This document shows, one piece after another, positions 10,330 to 47,550 of a stretch of 64,000 nt of DNA; position 1 is the stretch's first letter, and each line of letters opens with the position of its first letter. The notes under the pieces were generated by a model. That model saw only the letters and a list, made by a program, of their open reading frames with translations, had not been told where the DNA came from and made no database searches. The DNA is taken from positions 20,372 through 84,371 of the forward strand of contig JAURML010000026.1 of assembly GCA_030830695.1 (NCBI GenBank), in the 5' to 3' direction. Source of the DNA: Caenibius sp. (GTDB taxonomy: Bacteria; Pseudomonadota; Alphaproteobacteria; Sphingomonadales; Sphingomonadaceae). Position numbers and translations under genes: made by a program.

Positions 10330-11736
10330 ATGCAGATTAATACGCGAATGCTGATCGATGGAGAACTGGTCGATGGGGCAGACACCCTTGATGTTACCAA
10401 CCCCGCCACTGCCGCACCGTTTATAACGGTCGCTCGCGCCGACGCCGAGCAGCTAGACAAAGCCGTGGCCGCCGCGAAGGCTGCTGCCCCGGCCTGGGCA
10501 GCACTCGGTTGGGAAGCGCGCGGTGCGCTTCTGTCCCGGCTGGCCGATGCGCTGGAAGCACAGCGCGATGAGATGGCCCGCCTTCTGACCACCGAACAAG
10601 GCAAGCCGATCCGTCAGGCCACCGGCGAGGTGATCGGCGCAATCTACCAGCTGCGCTATTACGCCGCCCAGCGCGGCGAGCCCAGGGTGATCAAGGAAAC
10701 CGAAAGCTTCCGCGTGATCGAACACCGCACTCCGCTAGGGGTAGTGGCGGCGATCACCCCGTGGAACTTCCCGCTACTCATGGTGGTGCAGAAGATCGCC
10801 CCTGCCCTAGTTTCCGGCAACACAGTGGTCGCCAAGCCAGCCGCGACTACACCGGTCTGCGCGCTCAAGCTTGCCGAACTGGCAGCGGGGATATTCCCCG
10901 CCGGAGTGCTGAACATCATCGTCGATGCCAACGATCTGGGCGGCGCGCTTTCAGCCCATCCCGATGTGGCCAAGGTAAGCTTCACCGGGTCGACCGCCAC
11001 CGGCCGCCGGGTTATGGCCGCAGGCGCCGATGCGCTGAAGCGAATCACGCTGGAACTTGGCGGCAATGATGCCGCGATCATCCTTGATGATGTCGATGCC
11101 AAGGATATCGCACCCAAGATTTTCAATGGCGCGATGGTCAATGCCGGGCAAGTGTGTCTTGCGATCAAGCGGGTTTATGCGCCAGCCTCTATGTATGATG
11201 AGCTGTGCAGCGAATTGGCCCGCCTCGCTGCCGAAGCTACGGTGGATGATGGCTTCAACCAGGGGGCGCAGGTCGGTCCTGTGCAGAATCGGATGCAGTA
11301 CGAAAAGCTGCTCGATCTGCTTGCTGACAGCGCCGCCAACGGCAAGGTGATTGCCGGCGGGCAGCCAGTTGATCGCGATGGATATTTCATTGCTCCAACG
11401 ATTGTGCGAGATATCGCTGACGATGCCCGTCTGGTTCGGGAAGAGCAGTTTGGACCGATCTTGCCCGTGCTTTCCTATGAAAGCCTGGACGAGGTGGTCT
11501 CCCGCGCCAATGACAGCGAATATGGCCTTGGAGGCACGATCTGGACTAGCGATACCGATCGCGGAATCGAAGTGGCCATGCGGATCGACAGTGGGACTGT
11601 ATGGGTGAACCAGCACCTGAACCTGCCGTTCGATGTGCCATTCGGCGGGTCGAAGCAATCCGGCATCGGTCGCGAAGGCGGGGACGAAGGCATTCAGGCA
11701 TACACCCAGCCGCACATCATCAATGTCGCGCTTTGA
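10330..11736 (+). CDS. NAD(P)+-dependent aldehyde dehydrogenase
   Basis: 'LELGGNDAAII' (catalytic Glu), 'GQVCLAIKRVY' (catalytic Cys), 'EEQFGP'. Start chosen at 'MQINTRMLIDGELV' behind GGAGAG; the ORF-table start at 10111 overlaps the divergent promoter. Confidence 0.9.
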   Translation: MQINTRMLIDGELVDGADTLDVTNPATAAPFITVARADAEQLDKAVAAAKAAAPAWAALGWEARGALLSRLADALEAQRDEMARLLTTEQGKPIRQATGEVIGAIYQLRYYAAQRGEPRVIKETESFRVIEHRTPLGVVAAITPWNFPLLMVVQKIAPALVSGNTVVAKPAATTPVCALKLAELAAGIFPAGVLNIIVDANDLGGALSAHPDVAKVSFTGSTATGRRVMAAGADALKRITLELGGNDAAIILDDVDAKDIAPKIFNGAMVNAGQVCLAIKRVYAPASMYDELCSELARLAAEATVDDGFNQGAQVGPVQNRMQYEKLLDLLADSAANGKVIAGGQPVDRDGYFIAPTIVRDIADDARLVREEQFGPILPVLSYESLDEVVSRANDSEYGLGGTIWTSDTDRGIEVAMRIDSGTVWVNQHLNLPFDVPFGGSKQSGIGREGGDEGIQAYTQPHIINVAL

Positions 11737-15929: not shown

Positions 15930-17252
15930 ATGAATGCAACCCGGTCGCCCCAGCCCGCCGCCGCCGAAAACTTCATCCCTGCCGAATGGTACGTTGGTGA
16001 CGGCGTGACCCGGGCCGAGAACAGCAGGCTATGGCCACGCACCTGGCACTGCGCCGGGCGCATCGAAGAGCTAAAGGAAACCGGCGATTATTTCACCTTC
16101 GAGCTGCTTGACGATTCGCTGGTCATTGTACGCATCGGAGACAATGAATTCACCGCACTGCATAATGTGTGCCCTCATCGCGGTCGCCGGTTGAAGGACG
16201 CACCTCGCGGCAATGTCCGCGATGGCCTTTACTGCGGCTATCACGGCTGGGTCATGGACCTTGATGGTTCCGTCAAGTCGGCCCCCAACGCCGAAGACTG
16301 GTGTCCAGGCGAATTGGGCAAGCTGCGAATGTTGAAGGCGCAGCTCGATACATGGGCCGGGTGGATATGGGTCAACCTCGATCCTGCGGCTCCGCCCCTC
16401 AGCGAATACCTTGGTCCGGCGGTCGATATCCTTGCGCCGCTAGGGCTGGAAAAAATGCGCCGCGCCTGGCACGCGACGCTGCGGGCACCGGTCAACTGGA
16501 AGGTGCAGTACCAGGCCTTCAACGAGACCTACCACGCAGGCGCGACTCACGATGGCTTCATCAGCTACAAGAACCTCAGCTCGCAGGCCGTCCTCCACGG
16601 CGATCACGCAGTGTTCTATTCCAAGCGTACCGGCCCTTGTGCACGGCGCGATACTCTGGGCCAATGGCACGAGATTACGGACCTGCGCGAAGAACTGGCT
16701 GCCAATTTCATCCATCAGTACCGCAATCTGCATGCACTGACCCTGGAACCGACATTCCGCGCCGTAAACCGGCTTCTGGAGGAAGTGCCTACCGGAAGTC
16801 CACCCGAACAGGTGCTGGCCGAGCTGTGGCGGCTGCAGCGCGAGGAAACGGAAAAGACCGGAGCTGAATGGCCCGAAGCCCTGACGCCGGAAAACTTCGC
16901 CCGCATGGGCACCGACTGGCAGCTATTCCCTTCGACTCTGGTACTCCCGTCGGTCGACGGGGCGCTGTGGTATCGCATCCTGCCGTCAGCCGACGGCCGC
17001 TCGTGCCTCCATGATATCTGGGCGCTGGGCCGCTTTGCCCCTGGCGAAGAACCTGAAATCGAAGATCTCTATTTCGACAGCTTCGAGGACTTCAAAGGGG
17101 TCAACCCATTCCTTGAGGAAGACTTCGCGAACCTCATCGCAGTGGACAAGGGCATGCGCAGCCGCGGATGGGCAGGCGCCGTCCTCAATCCCCGTCAGGA
17201 GCCTCAGCAGCTTTCGATGATGCAGGCGATCCAACGATACATCAGCGAATAG
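15930..17252 (+). CDS. Rieske non-heme-iron oxygenase alpha subunit (paralog of 40184..41515)
   Basis: 'CPHRGRRL..CGYHGW' and Fe motif 'FNETYHAGATH'. The C-terminal block 'LPSVDGALWYRI..EEDFANL..VDKGMRSRG' is shared with 40184..41515. Start set at 'MNATRS'. Confidence 0.85.
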   Translation: MNATRSPQPAAAENFIPAEWYVGDGVTRAENSRLWPRTWHCAGRIEELKETGDYFTFELLDDSLVIVRIGDNEFTALHNVCPHRGRRLKDAPRGNVRDGLYCGYHGWVMDLDGSVKSAPNAEDWCPGELGKLRMLKAQLDTWAGWIWVNLDPAAPPLSEYLGPAVDILAPLGLEKMRRAWHATLRAPVNWKVQYQAFNETYHAGATHDGFISYKNLSSQAVLHGDHAVFYSKRTGPCARRDTLGQWHEITDLREELAANFIHQYRNLHALTLEPTFRAVNRLLEEVPTGSPPEQVLAELWRLQREETEKTGAEWPEALTPENFARMGTDWQLFPSTLVLPSVDGALWYRILPSADGRSCLHDIWALGRFAPGEEPEIEDLYFDSFEDFKGVNPFLEEDFANLIAVDKGMRSRGWAGAVLNPRQEPQQLSMMQAIQRYISE

Positions 17253-26987: not shown

Positions 26988-28172
26988 CTATATCACCTTT
27001 GCGGCACGCAATTTGATGATTTCGGACGGATCGAATCCCAATTCCACCATGATTTCATCGGTATGCTCCCCCAAGGTGGGAGGACGATTGCGGATCGTTC
27101 CCGGTGTCTCCGACAGATCGAAAGGCGTCGTCGACACTTTCGCCGGTTTCGTCAGGCCGGGAAAGTCGACTCCCTGCATGAAATTGAGTGCGCTGATATG
27201 CGGATCGTCCAGCGCCTGCTGCGGCGAAAGCAGCGGCCCGGCCGGAACCCGCGCCGCATCGAGCGAAGCCATGACTTCGGCCTTCGATTTCGCACTGCAC
27301 CAATCCTGCATCACATCGTTGAGGATATCCCCGTTCTCGGCGCGCAGGTCGTCGTTTGTGAAGCGCGGATCCTCGAACAGATCGAGCCTGTCGACCATGC
27401 GGCACCAGCGTTTAAACATCGCCTGCCCTATGACCTGGACCAGCACGAAACCGTCGGTCGCCTTGAACAGATCGCACGGAGCAACTGCCTGCCCGCGGTT
27501 GCCAACCGGCAGCCGATTGGACTGCATCAGATCCTGTTCGACCAGCATGGCATTGGTATAGACCAGTGCGGAGGCCAGCAGCGATGTTTCGACCTTCTGC
27601 CCTTCGCCCGTCGCGAGGCGGTGATAGAGCGCCATCATAGTCCCCAGCGCCATGTTCATCGAGGTGCCAAAATCAACCCATGGCACTGCCGAACGCATCG
27701 GCATGTCGGGAAAGCCTGAACGATAGACGCCGCCGGACATCACCTGGCCCAGCCCATCAAACCCGATCCGGTCGCTATAGGGGCCCCCGTTACCATAGGC
27801 TGAGGCGCTGGTGAGGATGATGTCGGGCTTCACGGTCCGCAGGCTTTCGTAGTCGAGGGCGTTTGCCCGCAGCGAAGCTTCGGGCATGTTGGCAATCACC
27901 ACGTCGGCGCCTGCCACCAGCTTCCGCACGATTTCCTGCCCTTCGGGCGTGGTGCTGTCGAGGGTCATCGAGCGCTTGTTGCGATTGCATTGCAGGAAGG
28001 TTGCCCCTTCGCCGCTCGGGGTCACCGGCTGGACCCAGCGATCTTCGCCCCCTTCACGCTTTTCGACGCGGATCACGTCGGCACCCATGTCGCCCAGCAG
28101 CGCGGCGCACCAGGGTGCCGCGATGAAGCGACCGAAATCCAGCACACGCACACCGTTCAATACCGCAGCCAT
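26988..28172 (-). CDS. Family III CoA-transferase (CaiB/BaiF/alpha-methylacyl-CoA racemase-like)
   Basis: N-terminal 'GVRVLDFGRFIAAPWCAALLGDMGADVIRVE' is typical of family III. 394 aa. Confidence 0.9.
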   Translation of the reverse strand: MAAVLNGVRVLDFGRFIAAPWCAALLGDMGADVIRVEKREGGEDRWVQPVTPSGEGATFLQCNRNKRSMTLDSTTPEGQEIVRKLVAGADVVIANMPEASLRANALDYESLRTVKPDIILTSASAYGNGGPYSDRIGFDGLGQVMSGGVYRSGFPDMPMRSAVPWVDFGTSMNMALGTMMALYHRLATGEGQKVETSLLASALVYTNAMLVEQDLMQSNRLPVGNRGQAVAPCDLFKATDGFVLVQVIGQAMFKRWCRMVDRLDLFEDPRFTNDDLRAENGDILNDVMQDWCSAKSKAEVMASLDAARVPAGPLLSPQQALDDPHISALNFMQGVDFPGLTKPAKVSTTPFDLSETPGTIRNRPPTLGEHTDEIMVELGFDPSEIIKLRAAKVI

Positions 28173-28175
28173 GGT

Positions 28176-29042
28176 TCAGTTCCCAACGGTCTGGCGGATT
28201 GCCTGCTCGGCTATCCGGCGCATGATGACATAGCCATCGCGATTTGGGTGCAGGCCATCGTTGCCGAGATCACGACGTAATTTGCCCGTGCCATCATCGA
28301 GCGGCCCAAAATAGTCGACAAAGCGCACGTGATTGCGCCTCGCCAGGTCCTTGATCTTCAGATTCACGACTTGGGTGCGGGCGTCGCGGGACATGCTCAG
28401 ACCGGTCGGTGTGAGCCCGCCGAGGATCACCTTGATGCGGTGCTGTCTGGCCAGGTCGACCATTGATTGCAGGTTATCAAGGATCATTTCGTCGGAGGAA
28501 GGGCCGGTGTTGCCAAATACATCGTTGGTTCCGGCAAGGATGTGTACTGCCTTGGGTTTCAGTGTGATCACGTCCTGCTGGAAACGCAACAGTATCTGCG
28601 GCGTCGTCTGACCCGAAATACCCCGGTTTACGATCCCGGCAGAAAACAGCTGCGGATCGGCTATGCCCCAGTTTTCGGTGATGGAATCGCCCAGAAACAC
28701 AACCTGCACCAGCTCGCCCGATGCAAGTAACTCGCGATTGGCGGCAAGATACTTGCACAGGTTCGGGAAATCCTTGGTCTGCTTGGCTTTCTCAGCAATA
28801 CTGAAATCCATCAGCCGCTTTAGCTCTTCCGGCGGGAACTTGCTGTAATTGATCTGCTTGCCCGGCTCCAGCAGCTCGTTTGTCAGCTTCTGCACTTCAG
28901 GCGGCATAGCGCTCACTCCGCAGATCGCCTCAAACCCTTCCGACGCGCTGGCATGACTGGCCAAATAGAACGGCGAAATTGTTAGTGCGCTGGCTACGCC
29001 GAGTACGCGAAACTTGTTCATGACAGACCTCTCTTGTGACAT
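28176..29042 (-). CDS. Secreted SGNH/GDSL-type hydrolase (esterase)
   Basis: 'VVFLGDSITENWG' (block I) and 'GNDGLHPNRDGY' (block V DxxH). Signal-peptide-like 'MNKFRVLGVASALTISPFYLASHASA'; the start may be the Met at 29021. Confidence 0.75.
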   Translation of the reverse strand: MSQERSVMNKFRVLGVASALTISPFYLASHASASEGFEAICGVSAMPPEVQKLTNELLEPGKQINYSKFPPEELKRLMDFSIAEKAKQTKDFPNLCKYLAANRELLASGELVQVVFLGDSITENWGIADPQLFSAGIVNRGISGQTTPQILLRFQQDVITLKPKAVHILAGTNDVFGNTGPSSDEMILDNLQSMVDLARQHRIKVILGGLTPTGLSMSRDARTQVVNLKIKDLARRNHVRFVDYFGPLDDGTGKLRRDLGNDGLHPNRDGYVIMRRIAEQAIRQTVGN

Positions 29043-29146: not shown

Positions 29147-29941
29147 TCAGCAGAAATCCGAGCCACCATCGACGTTGATCGCAGCGCCGGTCATGTAGGT
29201 GCTGCGAGGCGAGGCGACGAAAGCGATTACGGGACCAATTTCCGAGGGATCGCCCGCTCGCGGCAGATGTGCGGGATGGCCGAAATGATCGCGGATTCCG
29301 TCCATCACCGATGCCATGTCATCGGGATCATAACCTTCGCGTGCGGCCCACTTCTTGAGCGCAGGGCTGGCATAACTGCCGGGCAGGATCGTGTTGACCA
29401 GGATGTTTTCCGGCGCAAGCGAAAGCGACAGATTCTTGGTCACGCTGGCGACCACCGCCTTGGCCGCAGTATAGGCGACGAGGTTCGGTGCTTGGCGCTT
29501 GATCGAATGCGCCGACAGATTGACGATGCGGCCCCAGCTGGCCTTGCGGATCAGCGGCAGGCCGGCACGTACACAGCGGATCATACCCATGGCACCCAGA
29601 TCGATGATATCGAACCAATCCTTATCGGTAAGCTGGTCGAAGGTGCCGACCCCGGTCGGACCGGTGCAGTTTACCAAGCTGTTGATGTGGCCCCAGCGTT
29701 GGCCGATCGCGGCAAACGCGGCATCGACTTCATGGGCCTTGGTGATATCGGCAGCGAAACCGGCGGCATCGGCAGCGCCTAGCGAGAGCAGTTCGGCCAC
29801 GACCTCGTCCAGAGTCTCGCGGGTTCGCGCTATGATGCCGACCTTGGCACCCTCTTCGGCAAAGCAGCGCGCAGCGGCAAGGCCCATGCCCATGCTCCCG
29901 CCCTGTACGATGACCACCGCGTCCTTCAAACCGAGGTCCAT
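29147..29941 (-). CDS. SDR family oxidoreductase
   Basis: Rossmann motif 'VIVQGGSMGMGLAAARCF' and catalytic 'YTAAKAVV' (YxxxK). 264 aa. Confidence 0.85.
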   Translation of the reverse strand: MDLGLKDAVVIVQGGSMGMGLAAARCFAEEGAKVGIIARTRETLDEVVAELLSLGAADAAGFAADITKAHEVDAAFAAIGQRWGHINSLVNCTGPTGVGTFDQLTDKDWFDIIDLGAMGMIRCVRAGLPLIRKASWGRIVNLSAHSIKRQAPNLVAYTAAKAVVASVTKNLSLSLAPENILVNTILPGSYASPALKKWAAREGYDPDDMASVMDGIRDHFGHPAHLPRAGDPSEIGPVIAFVASPRSTYMTGAAINVDGGSDFC

Positions 29942-29981: not shown

Positions 29982-31385
29982 TTATTCTTCGACTGTGACC
30001 ACCTTGCCCGGATTAAGGATGTTCGCCGGATCCAACGTGCGCTTGAGCAGACGCATCAGTTGCAGCTCCTCAGCATTGCGCGACCAGCCGAGCCAGGCTT
30101 GCTTTTCCAGCCCGATCCCGTGCTCGGCACTGATCGATCCGCCCCGGCGGGTAACCTCACCATAGATGATGTCGTTCAGCGCCTTCTTGGTCGCCTTGTC
30201 GCGCGCGCCCACCCCAGCAACCAGATGCAGATTGCCATCGCCCAGGTGGCCGAACACGGTCAGCGTGGCCTTGCCCGGCCAGGCAGCTTCCAGTGCGGTG
30301 CGGACGCTGGCGACATAATCTTCCATGTCGCCCAGCCGCAGCGAGACGTCATAGGTAAAGATCGGCCAATTGCGCGCGGTCTGCCCGATATCGTCGCGCA
30401 GCTCCCACATGGCGTTGCGTTCCGCCTGGGACTTGGCGAGCGCGGCGTCGGCGAGGAGGTCCTTTTCGAAGGCCTCCATCAGCACGGCTTCGAACCGCTC
30501 GCTGTCCGCCTGCTGGTCCTGGCCCTGGGCCTCGATCAGCACATAATAGGGGTGCCGCCCCTCAAGCGGAGCTCGGCCTAGCGCCGGCGGCGCGGTCACG
30601 AGATCGTAGAAATCACTCCACATCACTTCATAAGCGGACAGCGACCCGGACAGTCGCTGCTCCATGTGGCGCAGCAAGCGAGGTAGATGTTCGAACGATT
30701 CGACCCCGACGAATGCGGTGTCCTGGCTGGTCGGCAGCGGTTTCAGCCGCAACACGGCGCGGGTGACGATGCCCAGCGTCCCTTCCGAACCGATGAACAG
30801 CTGCTTCAGATCGTAGCCGGCGTTGTTCTTGATGAGATGGTTCATCGAAGACACCACTGTGCCATCGGCCAGCACCGCCTCCAACCCGAGCACCATCTCG
30901 CGCACCATGCCATAGCGGATCACTCGGTTGCCGCCCGCATTGGTGGCGATCACGCCGCCTATCATGGCCGAACCGCGCGCGCCAAGATCAAGCGGCAGCA
31001 GCAAGCCTTCGCGCTCCGCCGCCTCTGCCGCGGTCTGCAGGATGCAGCCGGCCTCCACCGTGATCGTCCCGCCGATCGCATCTACCTCTTCGATCGCGGC
31101 CATGCGCTCAAGGCTCAGCGCGATGTGGCCGTCCGAAAAGATGCCGTGGACCAATCCCGTCTTGCCGCCCCATGCAGTCACCGGGATTCTGGCCTCGTTG
31201 CACAATTTGAGCGCAGCAGAGACTTCGCTGGTCGACGATGGACGGACAACGGCCAGTGGCGTCCCGACGCGACTCCAGTCGCTGACCGCCTTTTCCTTGG
31301 CCGCTTCGCCGAGCAGCACGCCGCCAACCGCTGGAACGGCCTGCGCCAGAGCCTCAACTAGGTCAGCGGGAAGCTCGGTCATCAT
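29982..31385 (-). CDS. FAD-linked oxidase / GlcD-type (D-2-hydroxyacid) dehydrogenase
   Basis: 'VVRPSSTSEVSAALKLCNEARIPVTAWGGKTGLVHG' (FAD_binding_4) and C-terminal 'SISAEHGIGLEK'. Start 'MMTELP' overlaps the stop of 31382..32935 (ATGA). The ORF-table N-terminal extension to 31664 is rejected. Confidence 0.85.
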   Translation of the reverse strand: MMTELPADLVEALAQAVPAVGGVLLGEAAKEKAVSDWSRVGTPLAVVRPSSTSEVSAALKLCNEARIPVTAWGGKTGLVHGIFSDGHIALSLERMAAIEEVDAIGGTITVEAGCILQTAAEAAEREGLLLPLDLGARGSAMIGGVIATNAGGNRVIRYGMVREMVLGLEAVLADGTVVSSMNHLIKNNAGYDLKQLFIGSEGTLGIVTRAVLRLKPLPTSQDTAFVGVESFEHLPRLLRHMEQRLSGSLSAYEVMWSDFYDLVTAPPALGRAPLEGRHPYYVLIEAQGQDQQADSERFEAVLMEAFEKDLLADAALAKSQAERNAMWELRDDIGQTARNWPIFTYDVSLRLGDMEDYVASVRTALEAAWPGKATLTVFGHLGDGNLHLVAGVGARDKATKKALNDIIYGEVTRRGGSISAEHGIGLEKQAWLGWSRNAEELQLMRLLKRTLDPANILNPGKVVTVEE

Positions 31386-32935
31386 CCGATGATGGCTTCG
31401 ATCAGGCGCGGTCCGGGCGTAGCCATGGCCTTGGCGAACTGCTCGGTGAATTCCGTGATCGAATGCGCCTCGCTCGCCTCGACCCCCATTGAACGAGCCA
31501 AGGCCGCCCAGCCGATATCCGGATTGCGCAGCGACAGCATGTCCTTGGCGCGTTCGCCCGGATTTTCCACGCCGACCCGACCCAGTTCGACGTTGAGGAT
31601 GCGGTAGGAACGGTTGGCAAAGACCACCGTTGTCACATCGCATTTTTCCCGGGCCATGCTCCACAGCGCCTGCGGGGTGTACATGCCCGAACCATCGCCG
31701 GTGATGCAGACCACCTTGGCCTCAGGCGCGGCAATCGCGGCACCCAGCGCAAGCGGCAGCCCCTGCCCGATCGACCCGCCGGTGAGCGGCATGTGCAGGT
31801 GCCTGCGTCCGGCATGACTGGCCGCCATGGTCGGCCCGGAAGAGGTTGCCCCGTCATCGGAAATGATCGCGCCTTCCGGCAGAAAATGGCCGATCACCTG
31901 ACCGATGGTATGGGCGTTGAACTTGGCCCCGGCGGGCGGCAGTTCCGGCAATAGCAGCGTGGTGCGCGACTGTGCACTGGCAGGCGCCCCTACAGCATCG
32001 GCCAGCGCGGCCAATGCCGCCACGCCACCTTCGTGCGGCTGCGCCAAGTTGAGCACTTCGCACTGCGGCGGCAGGCACCAACTGGGCTTGCCGGGATACG
32101 CAAAAAAGGCAGTCGGAGGCTTGGCCCCGACGAGCACGATAGCATCGAGATCACCGAGGAATTCGACGATCTGTTCGGCGAAATAAGGGATCCGCTCAAC
32201 CGGAACGACCCCGTCGCCGCGTTCGAGCACCGGGGCAAAGGTATCACACAGCAGCCGGGTGCCGGTGGCATCAGCAATCCGGCCAGCCTGCTCAAGTCCG
32301 GCAAAGCGCAGGGCATCGCCGCGCATGAGGATCGCGGTCTTGCCGCCCCTGCCCAGTGCATTGGCCACGCGCGCAACCGCATCGCCGGACACCGCCGAAG
32401 GGCCATTGACCGGCAGGCACGGGGCCGCGCCTTCGGCATCAAGCCAAGCGGTATCGGCGGGCAGGATCAGCGTGGCGATCTGCCCCGGTGCGGCGCGGGC
32501 CGCCTGAACAGCCCGAGCAGCATCGGCCGCGACGGTCAGGGGCGAAAGACTGGCCTCGACCCAAGCTGAGACCGGACGCGCGAAACCCGCGACATCGGAT
32601 GCCAGAGGCGGATCATACTGCGCGTGATAGGTCGCGTGATCGCCAACGATGTTGACCACTGGAGAGCTCGCCCGGCGGGCATTGTGCAGGTTGGCGAGGC
32701 CATTGGCGAGGCCCGGACCGAGGTGCAGCAATGTGGCGGCAGGCCGGCCGGTTACCCGCGCATAACCATCGGCAGCGCCGGTCACCACGCCTTCGAACAG
32801 GCCCAGCACGCAGCGGATCCCCTCGACCGAATCGAGCGCAGCGACAAAGTGCATCTCCGATGTGCCGGGATTGGCGAAACAGGTGTCGATTCCTGACGCA
32901 ACCAGCGTCCGGACAAGGCTTTCAGCGCCGTTCAT
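31382..32935 (-). CDS. Thiamine-diphosphate-dependent enzyme, benzoylformate-decarboxylase/acetolactate-synthase-like (517 aa)
   Basis: N-terminal 'GIDTCFANPGTSEMHF' and cofactor-activating Glu in 'LFEGV'. ThDP motif 'GDGSGMYTPQALWSMAREKCDVTTVVFANRSY' (GDG-x25-N). Confidence 0.85.
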   Translation of the reverse strand: MNGAESLVRTLVASGIDTCFANPGTSEMHFVAALDSVEGIRCVLGLFEGVVTGAADGYARVTGRPAATLLHLGPGLANGLANLHNARRASSPVVNIVGDHATYHAQYDPPLASDVAGFARPVSAWVEASLSPLTVAADAARAVQAARAAPGQIATLILPADTAWLDAEGAAPCLPVNGPSAVSGDAVARVANALGRGGKTAILMRGDALRFAGLEQAGRIADATGTRLLCDTFAPVLERGDGVVPVERIPYFAEQIVEFLGDLDAIVLVGAKPPTAFFAYPGKPSWCLPPQCEVLNLAQPHEGGVAALAALADAVGAPASAQSRTTLLLPELPPAGAKFNAHTIGQVIGHFLPEGAIISDDGATSSGPTMAASHAGRRHLHMPLTGGSIGQGLPLALGAAIAAPEAKVVCITGDGSGMYTPQALWSMAREKCDVTTVVFANRSYRILNVELGRVGVENPGERAKDMLSLRNPDIGWAALARSMGVEASEAHSITEFTEQFAKAMATPGPRLIEAIIG

Positions 32936-32961
32936 GGGACCGGGGACCTCCTCGCCTCAAT

Positions 32962-34197
32962 TCAGTCGCACCGGTGGACCGGCGGCGGCGGCGGATCGGG
33001 AAGCTTGCACAGGCCGGTCTTGCGCGAAGCGACGAGAATCGTTGCCGAAGCCCGGATATTCTCCTTGCCGCGCTGGTTGACTCCGCGCACATCAAGCTCG
33101 ATCAGGGGTCCCAAAACGTCATCGACCCGCACATCGGTGATCGTTCCCGTCAGCCAGGTAGTATCGCCCATATAGTTGAAATTGCGGAATTCGTACCGCA
33201 TGCGATAAACCCACGCATCGTCGCCAGAATAGTTCGAGAGGTAGTGGCAGACCATTGTCTGCCGCAGCGCGCCGATATCGTAGATATTGGGAATGCCCAC
33301 TTCGCGTGCGAGGTCAGCCTCCCAGTGCACGCGCTGGACAGTATCCCAGGCTCCATAATGGTTTTTGCTATAGAAGCCGCGCAGGCGCTTGCGGTTTTCA
33401 TAGGCAAGACGATAGGCCCAGTTGCCATAAATCAGCCAGCCCGCGCCCATGTGGAAGTTGATGAGATCGGTGATCGTGAGCGGACCCTTGACCATGCGCG
33501 GCAGCACCTGACCGACCGCGACATCCTCGATGTAGAGGGTATCGCTGCCACGGACATATTCGGCATCGTAGGCGGCTTCAATTTCGTCCAGTTCCGCGTC
33601 AGTATAGCTGGCCGGCGCATCGGGTTCGCGCTTGCTTTTCGACAGTTCGTCCTTATGCTTGCGGCGCTCGGCATGGACAAACCATTCCATGCCATCGGAA
33701 TAGACGACATCGTCCTTGTCCCACAGCGCCAGGCCGTTGGTGACAATTGCCGAACGGCCGGCGAATTCCGATTCCTTCACCTCCACTCCGTCGACCCACT
33801 TGGTGCGGTAGAGCTTTACCCCTTCGGTGATCGGGCGGTAATAGAAGTTCTCCCCACCCGAATAAAACAGCTGGACACCGCGGAGCGCCTTGTTCGTGTC
33901 TTTCATGTCCTCCGGCAATTCGCGGGTGCGCAGGATGCCCATCGACTTCTCGAAGCCTAGCGGAGCAATAGTTTCGCTCCAGCGGGTCTTGCTGGCATAT
34001 TCGGGGTCGATGTAGAGTGGATTATCATCACCCATGCACAGCGACCAGCGACGCACGGCATCGGCAGTTGCAATCTCGTTCCAAGCGCCACCGTGAATCC
34101 CGGCGCGCAGCGTGGGATTGGGATAGCCAATCCGCCGCCGCATTAATTCCACCGATTCGTCCGTGATCCGTCCCCGGATCAGACTTTGACTCGACAT
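32962..34197 (-). CDS. Double hot-dog fold (FAS1-like/MaoC-like) acyl dehydratase/hydratase
   Basis: 'ADAVRRWSLCMGDDNPLYIDPEYASKTRWSETIAPLGF' matches the MaoC_dehydrat_N pattern. About 410 aa. Start at the ATG at 34197; the ORF-table start at 34218 is a TTG. Confidence 0.6.
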   Translation of the reverse strand: MSSQSLIRGRITDESVELMRRRIGYPNPTLRAGIHGGAWNEIATADAVRRWSLCMGDDNPLYIDPEYASKTRWSETIAPLGFEKSMGILRTRELPEDMKDTNKALRGVQLFYSGGENFYYRPITEGVKLYRTKWVDGVEVKESEFAGRSAIVTNGLALWDKDDVVYSDGMEWFVHAERRKHKDELSKSKREPDAPASYTDAELDEIEAAYDAEYVRGSDTLYIEDVAVGQVLPRMVKGPLTITDLINFHMGAGWLIYGNWAYRLAYENRKRLRGFYSKNHYGAWDTVQRVHWEADLAREVGIPNIYDIGALRQTMVCHYLSNYSGDDAWVYRMRYEFRNFNYMGDTTWLTGTITDVRVDDVLGPLIELDVRGVNQRGKENIRASATILVASRKTGLCKLPDPPPPPVHRCD

Positions 34198-34272: not shown

Positions 34273-35073
34273 CTATCTTTTTGACAAAGCCTCGCGTGAC
34301 AGCAGCATATGCGTGGCTTCGAGATCAAGAAGGCTTTCGAGCGTGCCTGTCTCGGCCGCGTTGAGATTGCGTTTCATATAACCGTATGCCGTCCGTGGCC
34401 CATCGGCAAAGCGCCGCGCCAAAGCCATGACCTGGGCTGCGAGATCGGCATCGTCATGCACCGCCGAAACCATCCCGGCAGCAAGCGCTTGACGGGCATC
34501 GATCCTTTCACAAAGCAAATAAAGCTCACGAGCCTTGGCCGTGCCGAGGATTCGCGTCCAGAACCAGCTTCCGCCGTAATCTCCGGAAAGGCCGGCCCGG
34601 GCAAACACACTGGTCAGCATCGCCGATTCCCCCGCGATGCGGATATCGCACGCCCCGGCGAGGCTCAGCCCGGCACCGGCACAGGCTCCATTGATCATGG
34701 CGATCGTCGGTTTGGCCATGTCATGGAGCAAGCGCGCCGCCTCGGTCGACCGACGCAGCCATTCCGCGCGCGCCTGGAACGAGGTCTGCCTCGATGGCTT
34801 GGAGGCATCTTCGGCAAGCTTTTCAGCAGCCTGCTCACGCGCCGCCTTAGATGCCTTCATATCGCCGCCTGCGCAGAAGGCTCGGCCTGCCCCGGTCAGG
34901 ATCACGCAAGCGACACCGGGATTGTTGGCAGCCCGAGCTACCGCATCGTTGAGCAGCCGCATAAGCGAGGTGTTGAGTGCGTTCAGATTGTCAGGCCGGT
35001 TAAGCACCAGCGTCAAGACGCCCTCGTCCTCTAATTCCAGCAGCTCGGGCTCTGCTTCATTGGCCTCAGTCAT
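34273..35073 (-). CDS. Enoyl-CoA hydratase/isomerase (crotonase fold)
   Basis: 'LVLNRPDNLNAL', 'AFCAGGDM', 'GACAGAGLSLAGACDIRIAG'. ATGA overlap with the upstream synthetase gene. Confidence 0.85.
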   Translation of the reverse strand: MTEANEAEPELLELEDEGVLTLVLNRPDNLNALNTSLMRLLNDAVARAANNPGVACVILTGAGRAFCAGGDMKASKAAREQAAEKLAEDASKPSRQTSFQARAEWLRRSTEAARLLHDMAKPTIAMINGACAGAGLSLAGACDIRIAGESAMLTSVFARAGLSGDYGGSWFWTRILGTAKARELYLLCERIDARQALAAGMVSAVHDDADLAAQVMALARRFADGPRTAYGYMKRNLNAAETGTLESLLDLEATHMLLSREALSKR

Positions 35074-36641
35074 CCGAACTCTCCTGCCTGCAATCTGAAT
35101 TTCTGTACCTTTCCGGTCGAAGTCCGCGGCAGTGCGTCAACAAGGACAATAGAACGCGGAACCTTGAAGTTGGCCATGTTTTGGCGGCACCAATCAATGA
35201 TCTGTGCCGGATCAGGCTTGCCCCCGTCTGATCGCGCCACCACAAATGCCTTACCGACTTCGCCCATCCGGTGATCGGGAACACCTACCACCGCAACTTC
35301 GACTACAGCTGGATGATGAGCCATCATGGCTTCGATTTCCGCAGGATAACAGTTGAAGCCGCCGACGATGTAGACGTCTTTCTGACGGCCAGTGATGAAC
35401 AGATATCCACGCTCGTCGATCTTGCCGAGATCGCCAGTATGCAGCCAGCCTTCGGCATCGATTGCCTCGGCCGTGGCCGCGGGATCGTTGAAGTAACCCT
35501 GCATCACGTTATCGCCGCAGATCACAACCTCGCCCTCCTGTCCGGGACCCAGCAAGGCACCATCGGCATCCTTGATGGCGATCTCGGTGCCTGCGATCGC
35601 CTTGCCCGGCGAGGTGATCAGAATCTCGGTCGGATCGCTGGCGCTGGTCATGGTGGCCGTGCCGCAGCATTCGGTGAGGCCATAGCCAGTCAGGATCTGT
35701 TCGATCCCTAGGTCGTCATGCATGGCCTGGATAAGTGAGGGCGCCACCATGGTCGCACCGGTTATGGCGACCCTCAGCGAGGACAGTGCCCCCGCGCGGG
35801 CTTCCTCGGATTCGAGCAGGGACTGGAAGAGCGTGGGCGGCCCCGGTAGCATCGTGATCTTCTCGTCAGCGACAAGCCGCACCAACTTGCCGGTTTCGAA
35901 AACCGCCTGCGGATAAAGTGTCGCGCCTGCCAGCAGGCTCGCCAGCCAGCCCGATTTGTAGCCCGAGCAATGAAAGAACGGCCAGATCAGCGCATAGCGG
36001 TCATTGGCGGCCAGACTTGTCGCCCGATTCCACTCCCGATAGGTCCGGACGTTTTGGCCATGCAGGGTCAGAACCCCCTTGGGCGCTCCGGTAGTGCCTG
36101 AGGTGAACAGGATGTCCGATGGGCTTTCTCCGGTCAGCGCGGCGAGCCGCCGTGCAGCCTCGGCACCTGCTTGTTCGTCATTCGCAGCTGCTGCGATGAA
36201 ATTGCGCCATTCATCCGTGTCGGCTTCGGCCGTCGGGATCGCAATGACCTGGCCGAGCTGGGGCAGATCAAGCCCCCTGAGCATTGCGCGATAATCAATT
36301 CCAATGAACAGGCTGGAATGAACAAGAAAACGCGCACCGCTGTGTGCCAGCGCATATTGCGCCTCCAGCCCCTTCAATCGCGTATTGATCGGAACGACGA
36401 TGCCGCCGGCAGCTTGTGCGCCAAGGCAGGCGATGACCCAGTCGATCCCGTTGTGCGCCCAGATCGCGACGCGGTCCCCAGGTTCCAGACCAGCCCGTAC
36501 GAATGCCCGGGCCGCAGCAAGCATTTCTTCGGCCAGCGCGGCGTAACCGATCTGTCTGCTATCTTCGATGATGGCCGGGTGATTGCCCCGATCTGCAGCC
36601 GCCGCCAGCACAACATGAGGCAAGGTCACAGCCTCAGACAT
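35070..36641 (-). CDS. Acyl-CoA synthetase (AMP-forming)
   Basis: 'ILFTSGTTGAPKGV', 'GYGLTE', 'TGDLGKIDERGYLFITGRQKD'. Start 'MSEAVTLPH' at 36641 overlaps the aldo/keto reductase (AKR) stop by 8 nt. The longer ORF (to 36863) is rejected. Confidence 0.9.
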   Translation of the reverse strand: MSEAVTLPHVVLAAAADRGNHPAIIEDSRQIGYAALAEEMLAAARAFVRAGLEPGDRVAIWAHNGIDWVIACLGAQAAGGIVVPINTRLKGLEAQYALAHSGARFLVHSSLFIGIDYRAMLRGLDLPQLGQVIAIPTAEADTDEWRNFIAAAANDEQAGAEAARRLAALTGESPSDILFTSGTTGAPKGVLTLHGQNVRTYREWNRATSLAANDRYALIWPFFHCSGYKSGWLASLLAGATLYPQAVFETGKLVRLVADEKITMLPGPPTLFQSLLESEEARAGALSSLRVAITGATMVAPSLIQAMHDDLGIEQILTGYGLTECCGTATMTSASDPTEILITSPGKAIAGTEIAIKDADGALLGPGQEGEVVICGDNVMQGYFNDPAATAEAIDAEGWLHTGDLGKIDERGYLFITGRQKDVYIVGGFNCYPAEIEAMMAHHPAVVEVAVVGVPDHRMGEVGKAFVVARSDGGKPDPAQIIDWCRQNMANFKVPRSIVLVDALPRTSTGKVQKFRLQAGEFG

Positions 36642-39971: not shown

Positions 39972-40183
39972 ATGCTTCGCCTGAACCCTCGCCTGTTGCC
40001 TACGCCGACGGCTCCCCACCGGCGACCTCATCGAGCAGACCCTTTGCCAGCGATTCTCAGGATGATCAATTGCTATAACTGTATTTGCGCGCTAAATGTA
40101 GCAGAGTGCCTAGGCGGAGCTCGGCCAATGGCGGAATTGCAGGTAAAAGGACCGTTCATCCGGCAGGAGAGGTGACAAGTACA

Positions 40184-41515
40184 ATGAGTGATGCGCACAT
40201 CGATTCGGCCCGACCTGACTTTCTGCCGGCCGCAGACTATCGCGATCCGGCGCGTCACCGGGCAGAACTTGACCGTCTCTGGCCGCGCGTATGGCAGATG
40301 GCCTGCCGTGAATCCGATCTCGCCCATGTCGGCGCATTCGTGCGCTACGATATTGTCGATGACAGCATTCTGGTGGTGAAGACCGGCGATGGTGCAGACG
40401 ATGTCGTGGCCTACTACAACGTCTGCCAGCACCGCGGTCGTCGCCTGAAGGAAGACTGGAGCGGAACGATCTCCACGACACTGGCCTGCCGATTCCATGG
40501 CTGGCAGTGGCATATCAACGGCGACCTCCACAGCGTCTATGTTCCCGAGGACTGGGACGGCTGCCCCGAGATGGACTCCGCCTCGCTGGGTCTGCCGAAG
40601 GTAAAAGTGGGGCGCTGGGGCGGCTGGGTCTGGATCAACCAGGACCCGGATTGCGAACCTCTCGCGGACTACCTGGGCAGCGTGCCGCAGTTTCTTGATC
40701 CGTTCGAGCCGGAAAACATGCGTCCGCTGTGGTGGAAGACTATCATCGCGCCGGTCAACTGGAAGATCGTGATAGAGGCCTTCAACGAAGGCTACCACAG
40801 CTGGGCAACCCATGCGTCCGGGGTTAACTACCGCAATTCTCGCTCGCCGGGCATCGCCCACGGGCTCCATTCGATGTTCTATTCCGAATCTGTCGGCCCC
40901 GGAGAATTCAAGGACCCCCTGGGCAAGTGGCGCCTGCCCAAGTCGACTCAGGAATATATCTGGGCGAACAACAACCACCTTTTCAACACGCTGGGCGCGT
41001 TAGCACTGGAGCCGGGCATGGCGGCCAATAACCGCCTGCTCGAACTGCCCGCCGACACACCTTCGGGCGAAGTCGTGGCGACCATGTTCCGCTTCTATGC
41101 CGAAGAGTTCGAGAAGCGCGGAGTCACCTTCCCTCCGAACCTGACAATCGAGAACTGGGCCAAGGCGGGGACCGACTGGCACATCTTCCCGCACAGCATC
41201 TGCCTGCCCTCGCTGGACGGGGCATTGTGGTATCGCCTGCGCCCGAACGGCCATGATCCCGACAGTTGCATCTTCGATATCTGGTCGCTAGGCCGGTTCA
41301 AGCCGGGTGCAGAACCCAAGGTGGTGAACGATATCTATGAAGGCTTCGATGCCTTCCGCGGCCAATGCGCCTTCCTCGAGGAGGACTTCGCCAACATGGA
41401 AGCCGTGCACCAGGGCGTGAAAAGCCGGGGCTTCCGGGGCGCGCGGACCAACCCACGTCAGGAAGTCCCTGTCATCAATTTCCACCGCGCACTCGCCGAA
41501 TTCACCAGATCTTGA
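40184..41515 (+). CDS. Rieske non-heme-iron oxygenase alpha subunit (paralog of 15930..17252)
   Basis: 'CQHRGRRL..CRFHGW' and 'FNEGYHSWATH'. Start 'MSDAHIDS' sits behind GGAGAG. Confidence 0.85.
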   Translation: MSDAHIDSARPDFLPAADYRDPARHRAELDRLWPRVWQMACRESDLAHVGAFVRYDIVDDSILVVKTGDGADDVVAYYNVCQHRGRRLKEDWSGTISTTLACRFHGWQWHINGDLHSVYVPEDWDGCPEMDSASLGLPKVKVGRWGGWVWINQDPDCEPLADYLGSVPQFLDPFEPENMRPLWWKTIIAPVNWKIVIEAFNEGYHSWATHASGVNYRNSRSPGIAHGLHSMFYSESVGPGEFKDPLGKWRLPKSTQEYIWANNNHLFNTLGALALEPGMAANNRLLELPADTPSGEVVATMFRFYAEEFEKRGVTFPPNLTIENWAKAGTDWHIFPHSICLPSLDGALWYRLRPNGHDPDSCIFDIWSLGRFKPGAEPKVVNDIYEGFDAFRGQCAFLEEDFANMEAVHQGVKSRGFRGARTNPRQEVPVINFHRALAEFTRS

Positions 41516-41563: not shown

Positions 41564-42439
41564 ATGCCCTTCCCGTCAGACATCCGGGCCATCGACCTGA
41601 TGGTCAACATCCCGACCGACGAACACAACGAAGGCGGCTATTCAGGCTTTCGCCCACTTCTGCGTGACAAGGAAAGCCTCGATGCGTTCCATATGCCGGC
41701 GCAGTACATGTTTCGCAACATTCCCTCGCTGGGTTCGGACAGCCGCGAATATGTCGGTGCGATCATCGCCGAGATGGACAAGTGGGGCGTCGAAACTGCC
41801 CTGATCCCGGTCAACGACGCGATTCGCCATCCCGAGACCATGACCCGCTATCCCGGCCGCTTCATCACCCAGACTTCGATCAACCCATCGGGCGGCATGG
41901 AGGAAATCCGTCGTATCCGCGAGTTGCACCGCGAGCACGGCCTGCGCGCGCTGACCTATTTCCCCGCAGCCTCATTCCCGCAGGTGCCGATCGACGGCAA
42001 GGAAATGTACCCCCTCTATGCGCTGTGCTGCGATCTGGACTTGCCGATCCTGATCAACGTCGGCGTGCCCGGCCCGCGCGTACCGATGGCGACCCAGAAG
42101 GTCGAACTGATCGACGAGGTTTGCTGGTTCTTCCCCGAACTCAAGCTGATCATGCGCCACGGCGCCGAACCCTGGGTCGATCTGGCGGTCAAGCTGATGC
42201 TGAAGTACCCGAACCTCTACTACGCGCCCAGCGCTTTCGCACCCAAGCATTATCCCAAAGCGATCATCGATTTCGCCAATACGCGCGGATCAGACAAGAT
42301 CATGTACGCCGGCTATTTCCCGGCCGGCCTTTCGTTGGAACGGATATTCACCGAATTGCGCGCGGTGCCCTTCAAGGACGAAGTCTGGCCCAAGTTCCTG
42401 CGTGGCAATGCAGCCCGCGTGCTGGGCCTGCCAGCCTGA
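41564..42439 (+). CDS. Amidohydrolase_2 family protein (291 aa)
   Basis: TIM-barrel hydrolase-like, with 'LKLIMRHGAEPW' and 'DKIMYAGYFP'. Lies 48 nt downstream of the Rieske gene. The family call is moderately confident. Confidence 0.7.
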   Translation: MPFPSDIRAIDLMVNIPTDEHNEGGYSGFRPLLRDKESLDAFHMPAQYMFRNIPSLGSDSREYVGAIIAEMDKWGVETALIPVNDAIRHPETMTRYPGRFITQTSINPSGGMEEIRRIRELHREHGLRALTYFPAASFPQVPIDGKEMYPLYALCCDLDLPILINVGVPGPRVPMATQKVELIDEVCWFFPELKLIMRHGAEPWVDLAVKLMLKYPNLYYAPSAFAPKHYPKAIIDFANTRGSDKIMYAGYFPAGLSLERIFTELRAVPFKDEVWPKFLRGNAARVLGLPA

Positions 42440-46710: not shown

Positions 46711-47550
46711 ATGCCTGAATTGCTGACATGGGAAGATGCGAAGATTGTGGGCGAGATTCTTTCTGCCCGCTTACCCCATGTCGCGGACGTCGCTCCGGCC
46801 AACCTGTACCTGTTTCGCCGAGAGCACGAATACCAACTCCATAGGGGCTCACTGCCCTACCTTACGGGCCGCGCCTATGACGGGGCGCGGCTGATCATGC
46901 CGCTGTTCGCGCACGCCGACGCCAATCCGACGCAATGGATAGAATTGCTGGGGCAGGATGGCTGGCTTTTCCCGCTACGCCAAGAAGAGTTGTCCACCCT
47001 GCCCCCGGACTGGCAGATGCACTGCAATCCGGACGACAGCGATTATGTCTATCAAACCAGGCAGCTTGCCAGTCTTTTCGGAACGCGCGACCGGCGACGA
47101 CAGGCCGCGCGTTTCCTTGGTTCGGGCAGGATCACCGGGCTGTCCTTCGACGATCCGGCTGCGCCCGCACTAGCGCTGGAGGTGCTGGAAGGCTGGCAAG
47201 CACAATCGGGGAAGGATCCTGCCGCGACCGACCTGACCAACAGCCGAGAAGCGATTGAACGAGTCGCCGCACTGAAGCTGTTTGGCGAAGTAATATTGCG
47301 CGATGATGCTCCTGTCGGCTTCATTCTCGCCAGCACGCCCTGGTCAGACATGACCGTAATACACTTCGCCAAAGGCCTGGCGGAGGCCAACGGCGTCTAC
47401 CCGGCTATGTTCAGCCGAATTGCCGCGCGGCCGGACGCGCCCATTTGGACCAGTTTTGAGCAAGACCTCGGCAATCCGCGATTCCGACAGGCTAAACGCG
47501 CTTATGGCCCGGACCACTTGCTCGCCAAGTACCGCGCTCGTCCCACTTGA
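46711..47550 (+). CDS. Hypothetical protein, DUF2156 (LPG-synthase C-terminal/GNAT-like) type
   Basis: 'NLYLFRREHEY', 'DSDYVYQTRQLASLFG' and C-terminal 'EQDLGNPRFRQAKRAYGP' fit my memory of the DUF2156 pattern. This is not verifiable here. Confidence 0.45.
   Translation: MPELLTWEDAKIVGEILSARLPHVADVAPANLYLFRREHEYQLHRGSLPYLTGRAYDGARLIMPLFAHADANPTQWIELLGQDGWLFPLRQEELSTLPPDWQMHCNPDDSDYVYQTRQLASLFGTRDRRRQAARFLGSGRITGLSFDDPAAPALALEVLEGWQAQSGKDPAATDLTNSREAIERVAALKLFGEVILRDDAPVGFILASTPWSDMTVIHFAKGLAEANGVYPAMFSRIAARPDAPIWTSFEQDLGNPRFRQAKRAYGPDHLLAKYRARPT

Follow-up and report, generated by a model that had tools for sequence, protein, structure and literature searches.

The subject of this report is a pair of overlapping genes in a 64,000-nucleotide stretch of DNA from Caenibius sp. 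(contig JAURML010000026.1 of assembly GCA_030830695.1, positions 20,372 to 84,371; this whole stretch is referred to as the window). Both genes lie on the minus strand. The first (31382..32935; 517 amino acids, ATG start) encodes an enzyme dependent on thiamine diphosphate (ThDP), from the orphan family PRK07586, with a predicted fold like that of benzoylformate decarboxylase (BFDC). The second (29982..31385; 467 amino acids from its ATG) encodes a flavin adenine dinucleotide (FAD)-linked oxidase, a putative FAD/Zn-type D-2-hydroxyacid dehydrogenase of the D-2-hydroxyglutarate dehydrogenase (D2HGDH) lineage whose distal pocket is remodelled. The two may well act in succession on free acids; the dehydrogenase would supply a 2-oxo acid, and the ThDP enzyme, a proposed 2-oxo acid decarboxylase, would remove one carbon from it.

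The stop codon of the ThDP gene and the start codon of the FAD-oxidase gene share the four bases ATGA (31382..31385, minus strand; junction ...ATC GGA TGA / ATG ATG ACC..., read directly from the sequence), an overlap that suggests that the two are translationally coupled. Products of the same 517 and 467 amino acids are predicted on a metagenome contig of identical sequence, for which genes had been called independently. The pair is embedded in a minus-strand array of 11 genes that runs from 40031 to 26988, with overlaps (-17 to -4 nt) or gaps of at most 104 nt between neighbours. Its first half comprises, in order, genes for an acyl-coenzyme A (acyl-CoA) synthetase, an MDMPI/DinB-like protein, an aldo-keto reductase, a FadD3-like acyl-CoA synthetase and a crotonase; the second half continues with a double hot-dog protein, the ThDP enzyme, the FAD oxidase, a short-chain dehydrogenase/reductase (SDR), an SGNH esterase and a family III CoA-transferase. 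A gene for a GntR/FCD regulator follows after a gap of 188 nt. An earlier description of the window, made from the letters alone (the sequence-only reading), had given the gene coordinates, the ATGA overlap and the upstream and downstream neighbours correctly in every particular. It had also remarked on the lack of a gene for the small subunit of acetolactate synthase (ALS), and neither such a gene nor an ACT domain occurs among the approximately 48 predicted genes of the window. The operon is likewise devoid of glcE- and glcF-type genes. A scan for promoters and terminators between 26000 and 41000 returned sites no more numerous than those in shuffled sequence.

The ThDP enzyme and its FAD-dependent partner

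In Pfam, the ThDP protein matches TPP_enzyme_N and TPP_enzyme_C; for the central domain, TPP_enzyme_M, there is no match even at E ≤ 10. Its translation does contain the ThDP motif that had been claimed, GDGSGMYTPQALW...VVFANRSY. Among NCBIfam models, the protein is a full-length member of NF005760 (PRK07586), a bioinformatic family labelled 'acetolactate synthase large subunit'; it scores 733.3 bits (cutoff 363), and its residues 1–516 cover positions 1–514 of the 514-position profile. The next best characterised family is BFDC, whose equivalog model (NF005485) is missed with 186 bits against a cutoff of 493. Apart from NF005760, no acetolactate synthase model gives more than 107 bits, the cutoffs being 509–1084; the model for biosynthetic ALS, TIGR00118, gives 101.6 bits (cutoff 538). 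The Xsc model scores approximately 80 bits.

A search of PDB sequences is led by 48 BFDC-type entries, which align over the full length with E values of 1e-24 to 3e-34 and an identity of about 25%. ALS structures rank below these, with E values no better than 1e-18, and they align only in part, either over the N-terminal ~100–210 residues or over C-terminal stretches. The AlphaFold (AF2) model of the protein has a mean predicted local distance difference test score (pLDDT) of 90.8 and a predicted template modelling score (pTM) of 0.92. All of its best 50 Foldseek matches in the PDB are BFDC-type structures, with TM scores of 0.79–0.84 (1bfd, 6qsi and 7orx among them, at 0.80–0.84). They include BFDC of Pseudomonas putida, the 4-hydroxybenzoylformate decarboxylases of P. 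fluorescens Pf-5 and Rhodococcus jostii RHA1, BFDC-like proteins of Mycobacterium smegmatis and Polynucleobacter, and formolase variants. As modelled, the protein has the three-domain fold of BFDC, in which no nucleotide is bound by the middle domain. The view of the sequence-only reading that the ThDP protein stands nearer to BFDC than to biosynthetic ALS is thus borne out by the model scores (186 against at most 107 bits) and by the leading PDB and Foldseek matches. Oxalyl-CoA decarboxylase (OXC) and 2-hydroxyacyl-CoA lyase (HACL) are absent from the best 25 NCBIfam families and the best 50 structural matches, and OXC also from the best 60 PDB sequences; no specific similarity to cyclohexane-1,2-dione hydrolase (CDH) or benzaldehyde lyase appears in the NCBIfam, PDB or Foldseek results.

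The active site was compared by aligning 85 members of the ThDP family to BFDC. The residues that hold the cofactor and its metal are conserved throughout; BFDC Glu47 corresponds to E48, and the Mg ligands D428 and N455 correspond to D414 and N441 (GDG...N), all of them invariant in the family. Of the four catalytic residues of BFDC, three are retained. S26 is replaced conservatively by T25, E28 and H70 are found as E27 and H71, and each of the three is invariant. The fourth, His281, is lost, and its place is taken by Phe in all 85 members (F278 in the window protein). The aromatic substrate pocket of BFDC is not kept either; A460 and F464 are replaced by I446 and E450, both invariant, while L461 is matched by an invariant L447, and G456 by R442, a position that is mostly Arg in the family. 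Pockets of the pyruvate decarboxylase type, which accept aliphatic 2-oxo acids, likewise have Ile at position 460, a reading that draws on work on the BFDC A460I variant and on PDB titles. Judged by its sequence and model, the ThDP protein is a catalytically equipped sister of BFDC, and neither a BFDC orthologue nor a member of the ALS or OXC/HACL lineages.

This placement bears on nomenclature. The name carried by NF005760 conflicts with the nearest characterised relatives of the protein, because these are of BFDC type and the other acetolactate synthase models are missed by wide distances. NF005760 is a legacy model, typed as 'equivalog'; JGI and NCBI records use its name, and the related PRK12474 is called 'hypothetical protein'. 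The naming of PRK07586 looks like a systematic mis-annotation that extends over hundreds of species.

The FAD protein combines the Pfam domains FAD_binding_4 and FAD-oxidase_C. Its closest structures are those of Rhodopseudomonas palustris 3pm9 (E 7e-96) and human D2HGDH (6lpn; E 7e-85), with which it shares its architecture. For the human enzyme, the residues that bind the C1-carboxylate, the C2-hydroxyl, Zn and the C5-carboxylate of the substrate have been described (PMC7801405). Carboxylate-binding R386, the Zn ligands H434, H441 and E475, and catalytic H476 are all identical in the window protein, and this Zn/2-hydroxy-carboxylate site is kept in every full-length paired orthologue aligned (the fragment from L115 ends before the last two columns). 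In the distal part of the pocket, T390 is replaced by G, K401 by T, Y432 by F and N443 by V.

It is these distal changes that separate the paired proteins from D2HGDH. K401 and N443 are replaced in the window copy and in 18 of 18 non-redundant orthologues encoded next to a ThDP gene (K401 by T, N or V; N443 by V or I), whereas both are kept in 3pm9 and in 12 homologues that are not adjacent to a ThDP gene (38–45% identity, from the same loci). Within the window's own clade, G or S stands at the position of T390. Since the C1-carboxylate and Zn residues are kept and the binders of the C5-carboxylate are lost, the predicted substrate of the FAD protein is a D-2-hydroxy acid in its free form, with a side chain other than carboxyalkyl; specificity for D-2-hydroxyglutarate or D-malate is not expected on these residues. 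Two assignments were considered and rejected. A genuine D2HGDH is disfavoured by the changes at K401, N443, T390 and Y432 and by model scores, and GlcD by 239.6 bits for TIGR00387 (cutoff 567.9) and 136 for PRK11230 (cutoff 897). On sequence criteria, therefore, neither protein of the pair belongs to the characterised families it resembles, BFDC on the one hand, and D2HGDH and GlcD on the other.

Conservation and neighbourhoods of the pair

The ThDP family is large. All 8000 of 8000 scored candidates pass E ≤ 1e-20, and the genome and metagenome scans contain more than 500 relatives each. Copies that are 50–68% identical to the window protein occur in hundreds of alpha- and betaproteobacterial genomes, and copies with 50–62% identity on 84 plasmids or chromids. 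In 130 loci there was enough downstream sequence to assess pairing. Nineteen of these (17 non-redundant) have an orthologue of the FAD protein, with 62–79% identity, directly downstream on the same strand. Among close relatives pairing is the rule; all eight loci with at least 71% identity and enough downstream sequence are paired (seven from the tblastn survey, L084–L089, and one further contig). In a neighbour-joining tree, the clade of the window protein is paired in six of six cases, and the other paired loci form two further clades. The sequence-only reading had named a pair confined to this strain as the observation that would speak against a module, and the pair is found well beyond it. 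Several positions separate paired from unpaired ThDP proteins (V50, A54, V243, L263, A265, R324 and R445), with functional and phylogenetic signal not separable in this set.

The four-base overlap itself recurs in five diverged loci with gene calls (L084, L085, L086, L087 and a fifth contig; 72–82% identity), and the flanks differ between them. In L084, the pair lies in the same acyl-CoA operon as in the window, adjoined by the hot-dog gene and accompanied by a family III CoA-transferase gene. L088 and L089 have the same gene set, with the block of synthetase, crotonase and reductase genes inverted downstream of the trio of hot-dog, ThDP and oxidase genes; in L089, too, the hot-dog gene adjoins the pair. 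In L086, the hot-dog gene is nearby, and SnoaL and MFS genes are inserted between it and the ThDP gene. Crotonase orthologues with 60–72% identity remain near the pair in L084, L086, L088 and L089 despite the rearrangements. The remaining contexts are of other kinds. L087 has a gene for an IclR regulator and a divergent block for a family III CoA-transferase, FadB and TauD, and the fifth contig has an acyl-CoA dehydrogenase gene upstream of the pair and an SDR gene downstream. In L085, the pair is surrounded by housekeeping genes, with ribosomal protein genes adjoining, and the sole addition is a CoA-transferase of the acetyl-CoA-hydrolase family. The ThDP and FAD genes are a mobile, co-inherited unit, to which the hot-dog gene belongs in the window's sub-clade.

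Other dehydrogenases recur around the family. In four loci (L010, L016, L111 and L131), a gene for a flavin mononucleotide (FMN)-dependent L-2-hydroxyacid dehydrogenase lies directly beside the pair. The enzymes of L010 and L016 pass the L-lactate dehydrogenase subfamily model with 521–532 bits (cutoff 376) and miss the LldD-specific model with 460–473 bits (cutoff 550). In these loci, dehydrogenases of D- and L-specificity would be grouped about a single ThDP enzyme, an arrangement known for the mandelate and lactate dehydrogenases of Acinetobacter. In C. sphaeroides KD131, three CoA-transferase genes and a gene for a nicotinamide adenine dinucleotide (NAD)-dependent 2-hydroxyacid dehydrogenase lie upstream of a 50% identical ThDP homologue. 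Genes for aldehyde dehydrogenases are found directly downstream of a 56% identical homologue on a Paraburkholderia plasmid, and ~3.5–5.5 kb upstream in four paired loci (L005, L014, L022 and L058). Three unrelated 2-hydroxyacid dehydrogenase superfamilies and aldehyde dehydrogenases thus recur near the family, as would be predicted for a 2-oxo-acid decarboxylase.

The unpaired members have neighbourhoods of their own, two of which are very stable. In the Parvibaculum type (L001, L004, L007 and others), the ThDP gene comes last, preceded in order by genes for an AcuI-like reductase, a 620-residue acyl-CoA synthetase and a LysE exporter. In the Bradyrhizobium type (L020, L030, L044 and others), it again stands at the end, and the genes before it encode, in order, an acyl-CoA synthetase, PhaC, an alpha/beta hydrolase and an acyl-CoA dehydrogenase like glutaryl-CoA dehydrogenase.

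Proposed function and alternatives

In the mandelate pathway, the enzymes MdlB, an (S)-mandelate dehydrogenase, MdlC, a benzoylformate decarboxylase, and MdlD, an aldehyde dehydrogenase, act one after the other (PMC7760541). The core of this pathway, and the bzf clusters for 4-hydroxybenzoylformate decarboxylase, convert a 2-hydroxy acid to a 2-oxo acid and the latter to an aldehyde and CO2. We propose, with about even confidence and on the strength of sequence and model comparisons, that the gene pair forms a two-step module of this kind that acts on free acids. In the first step, the FAD/Zn dehydrogenase would form the 2-oxo acid by oxidising a D-2-hydroxy monocarboxylic acid, whose substituent, to judge by the conserved active site of the enzyme, is neutral or apolar and not a carboxyethyl group. 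In the second, the BFDC-like ThDP enzyme would decarboxylate the 2-oxo acid non-oxidatively, giving CO2 and an aldehyde one carbon shorter, as its fold, catalytic residues and context suggest. T25, E27 and H71 would take the roles of their BFDC counterparts, and E450 may stand in for His281. With Ile at position 460 and the pocket of the dehydrogenase remodelled, the substrate is likely to be aliphatic or alicyclic, and neither aromatic nor dicarboxylic.

The likeness to the mandelate core extends from the reaction logic to the ThDP fold and to the residues equivalent to S26 (as Thr), E28, E47 and H70; some loci add an FMN-dependent L-2-hydroxyacid dehydrogenase of the MdlB/LldD superfamily, and the dehydrogenase gene is coupled to the ThDP gene by the ATGA overlap in the window and paired with it in 17 non-redundant loci. 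The differences are equally clear. Identity to BFDC is only ~25%, the equivalog model is missed, and H281F, A460I and F464E leave no aromatic pocket. Moreover, where the mandelate core has an FMN enzyme with its racemase, the pair has an FAD/Zn enzyme that is D-specific and descends from D2HGDH, and it resides within acyl-CoA operons. The order of a 2-hydroxyacid dehydrogenase followed by a ThDP decarboxylase, which the sequence-only reading had taken from the mandelate pathway, agrees with the complete 2-hydroxy-carboxylate/Zn site and with the 2-hydroxyacid dehydrogenases and aldehyde dehydrogenases that flank the family elsewhere. In its broader form, that reading described a candidate one-carbon cleavage module. 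This description is partly supported: the ThDP protein does resemble a decarboxylase and the pair is conserved, while neither the acyl-CoA lyase option nor the link to one particular aldehyde dehydrogenase finds support.

The module would be co-transcribed with the hot-dog protein, the crotonase, two acyl-CoA synthetases and the CoA-transferase. Because it shares an operon with such genes, it probably serves to remove a carbon that beta-oxidation of the island's substrate cannot handle. The CoA-transferases that accompany the pair (those of the window, L084 and L087 belong to family III, that of L085 to the acetyl-CoA-hydrolase family) could supply the free acid from a CoA ester. Subsequently, the shortened acid would re-enter CoA-dependent degradation by way of an aldehyde dehydrogenase and an acyl-CoA synthetase.

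Several observations weigh against this proposal. Approximately 85% of the ThDP loci have no FAD partner (pairing, ~15%), and the neighbourhoods of the unpaired members may mean that the family's general substrate is tied to CoA esters, which a model built on the pair does not explain. Nor does it account for where, in a pathway of hydratases and crotonases, a 2-hydroxy acid would come from. No aldehyde dehydrogenase is encoded in the operon. The gene to which the sequence-only reading had assigned the aldehyde (10330..11736) is the nearest, but it lies 20 kb away on the plus strand, the other strand, and encodes a generic aldehyde dehydrogenase, so that this link is not supported. With the proton donor to the enamine, His281, lost and an invariant Glu at the position of F464, the chemistry after decarboxylation could differ from that of BFDC, and could for example be carboligation. 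Finally, the literature searched yielded no tested activity or function for any PRK07586 member, for the paired FAD subfamily or for the gene pair as such. Two proteins called 'IlvX', which may or may not belong to PRK07586, have been described in catabolic settings. VPARA_05550 of Variovorax paradoxus TBEA6 is encoded beside four crotonase genes; thiodipropionate and 3-sulfinopropionate induce it, and a deletion mutant showed no phenotype (PMC6370202); Rv3509c of M. tuberculosis lies inside the cholesterol region (PMC6429209).

Among the alternatives, a role in the metabolism of small, general metabolites is unlikely, though the likeliest of them. The FAD enzyme would then be a dehydrogenase for D-lactate (or D-2-hydroxybutyrate or glycolate), and the ThDP enzyme would convert pyruvate or 2-oxobutyrate, whether by decarboxylation or as an acetolactate or acyloin synthase independent of FAD; the pair would be a passenger in the operon. 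The FMN neighbours in L010 and L016 fit this idea in that they pass the L-lactate dehydrogenase subfamily model, although the same enzymes miss the LldD-specific one. In the clades of these two loci, the T390 equivalent is V or L and N443 is replaced by I, the pattern of D-lactate dehydrogenase and GlcD (PMC7801405); in the window's clade, by contrast, G or S at this position leaves a larger pocket that is not filled. The setting of the pair of L085 among ribosomal and housekeeping genes is a further point in its favour, and the spread of the ThDP family over many taxa at 61–68% identity would suit a common substrate. Against it, the hot-dog, ThDP and FAD-oxidase genes stay together where the genes around them have been inverted. 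The family name in NCBIfam, acetolactate synthase, would also be in favour, but it stems from the legacy model, and the other acetolactate synthase models remain far below their cutoffs.

That the ThDP enzyme works chiefly as a carboligase or C–C hydrolase, which forms an acyloin from a 2-oxo acid and an aldehyde, or cleaves a 1,2-diketone as CDH does, is rather improbable. A ring-derived intermediate would then be made or opened, rather than a chain shortened. The loss of His281 and the gain of the invariant Glu450 are compatible with such chemistry; BFDC-type scaffolds readily carboligate, as the formolase variants among the structural matches illustrate, and the SDR and the aldo-keto reductase of the operon could reduce acyloins or diketones. 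Against this stand the lack of specific similarity to CDH or benzaldehyde lyase, and the conserved coupling to 2-hydroxyacid dehydrogenases and aldehyde dehydrogenase genes, which suits the release of an aldehyde better.

The sequence-only reading had also allowed for a ThDP enzyme that works on a CoA thioester, in the manner of oxalyl-CoA decarboxylase or 2-hydroxyacyl-CoA lyase. Formyl-CoA would then pass to the family III CoA-transferase, and the FAD enzyme would catalyse a separate step. We regard this as very unlikely. The operon does contain a family III CoA-transferase, whose relatives include formyl-CoA-transferase and SUGCT-like enzymes, L084, L085 and L087 likewise have a CoA-transferase with the pair, unpaired family members adjoin genes for acyl-CoA synthetases and acyl-CoA dehydrogenases, and the TauD-type dioxygenase of L087 could make a 2-hydroxyacyl-CoA. 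However, OXC and HACL are not among the best 25 NCBIfam families or the best 60 PDB sequences, the best 50 structures are all free-acid decarboxylases of BFDC type, no central, nucleotide-binding Pfam domain is detectable, and the site of the translationally coupled FAD partner is built for a free alpha-carboxylate. The comparison with peroxisomal and actinobacterial alpha-oxidation via PhyH and HACL1/2 (OXC family) is nonetheless instructive. There, too, a ThDP enzyme removes one carbon from a 2-hydroxylated acid beside CoA-dependent degradation, and family III CoA-transferases and, in L087, a TauD-type dioxygenase add to the resemblance; but the ThDP enzyme of the window is not of the OXC/HACL lineage, and its dehydrogenase implies a free-acid route that releases CO2 and not formyl-CoA. 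That the ThDP gene encodes a genuine ALS large subunit of the IlvB/IlvG type is scarcely credible, since the match to NF005760 and the name in JGI and NCBI records are outweighed by the failure of TIGR00118 and every other acetolactate synthase model, structures that align only partially, the lack of a central FAD-binding domain and of a small-subunit gene in the window, and the catabolic setting of the operon.

If the two-step decarboxylation module is correct, it would provide a testable function for a large orphan ThDP family that is now named 'acetolactate synthase large subunit'. It would also mean that the D2HGDH lineage has been re-tooled for a non-dicarboxylic substrate, with a two-residue signature (loss of K401 and N443) that could be used to sort annotations, and that a CO2-releasing alpha-oxidation step on free acids can be inserted into CoA-dependent catabolic islands of bacteria. 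BFDC-type enzymes are established scaffolds for carboligation, and a relative with an aliphatic pocket could be of interest for biocatalysis.

A more far-reaching version of the decarboxylation module is speculative and, in our estimate, doubtful. Here, the trio of hot-dog, ThDP and FAD-oxidase genes would, with the CoA-transferase, constitute a bacterial alpha-oxidation bypass for free acids, set in an island of beta-oxidation type that degrades an alicyclic, steroid-like or branched acid. Once released from CoA, a 2-hydroxylated intermediate would be oxidised by the re-purposed D2HGDH descendant and decarboxylated by the orphan sister enzyme of BFDC. If so, genes called 'acetolactate synthase large subunit' in hundreds of proteobacterial species would encode aliphatic 2-oxo-acid decarboxylases, and the route would differ from the alpha-oxidation through HACL and formyl-CoA that eukaryotes and actinobacteria use.

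Operon neighbours and the surrounding island

The gene directly upstream of the ThDP gene (32962..34197, minus strand) encodes the double hot-dog (MaoC/FAS1-DH-like) protein of 411 amino acids; 26 nt, which contain GAGGAGG, separate its stop codon from the ThDP start. It matches the Pfam domain FAS1_DH_region and, weakly, HadA and HadB, and in the PDB gives only a marginal MaoC match (E 0.005). Its hydratase-2-type motif reads GDDNPLY (34012-34032, minus strand). The final Tyr occupies the position of the catalytic His of MaoC-type hydratases, and the same Tyr is found in the orthologues of L084 (GDENPLY) and L086 (GDDNPFY). The reaction of the hot-dog protein may therefore be other than standard enoyl-CoA hydration.

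Further upstream on the same strand lie the genes for the crotonase-family enzyme (34273..35073) and the FadD3-like acyl-CoA synthetase (35070..36641; its start, after correction, is the ATG at 36641). The crotonase resembles PaaG and oxepin-CoA hydrolase (Pfam ECH_1; NCBIfam PaaG 172 bits, below cutoff; PDB 4fzw_C, E 9e-39). The synthetase (Pfam AMP-binding) scores 644.8 bits against the cutoff of 657 for the NCBIfam FadD3 family.

Downstream of the pair, the SDR gene (29147..29941, minus strand; Pfam adh_short) starts 40 nt after the FAD-oxidase gene. It is followed by the gene for the SGNH/GDSL esterase (28176..29042, minus strand), which precedes that for the CoA-transferase. The esterase has an N-terminus like a signal peptide, MSQERSVMNKFRVLGVASALTISPFYLASHASA, and would be exported, within an otherwise cytoplasmic acyl-CoA operon. 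The family III CoA-transferase (26988..28172, minus strand; Pfam CoA_transf_3, E 6e-109) is of the dicarboxylate/formyl-CoA-transferase-like type. Its matches to true transferases in the PDB, 4ed9, 10uh (Frc) and 9br6 (SUGCT), have E values of 1e-46 to 1e-53; an MCR-type racemase, as in steroid side-chain degradation, was considered and rejected, racemases matching at only ~1e-15.

The remainder of the window is rich in catabolic genes. It contains three Rieske oxygenase genes (9200-10177, 15879-17252 and 40085-41515), one with a KshA-type C-terminal domain, a P450 gene (14411-15688), three genes for Amidohydro_2 proteins (3943-5136, 7814-9139 and 41564-42439), a thiolase gene and several genes for acyl-CoA dehydrogenases, of which at least two form a PimC/PimD-like pair. 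The sequence-only reading had placed the pair in the frame of steroid or branched-acid catabolism. This assignment is not established, as the gene content (KshA-like/Rieske, P450, acyl-CoA dehydrogenases, Amidohydro_2 and thiolase) is equally compatible with steroid, terpenoid and alicyclic acids and with acids derived from lignin.

Two further groups of genes stand out in the island. Two genes for APH-family phosphotransferases (50466-51278 and 56033-57118, both plus strand) are found among genes for acyl-CoA synthetases, CoA-transferases and crotonases, and a protein of 391 amino acids without a Pfam match is encoded at 54776-55951; this combination is reminiscent of the kinase-dependent route for 4-hydroxyacyl-CoA (LvaA or ACAD10-11 type). 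An odd companion of the degradation genes is a protein with an LPG_synthase_C domain (the C-terminal domain of lysyl-phosphatidylglycerol synthase; 46711-47550, plus strand), and a protein of the same kind is encoded again beside the GntR regulator in L084 (11171-12037), the locus with 82% identity.

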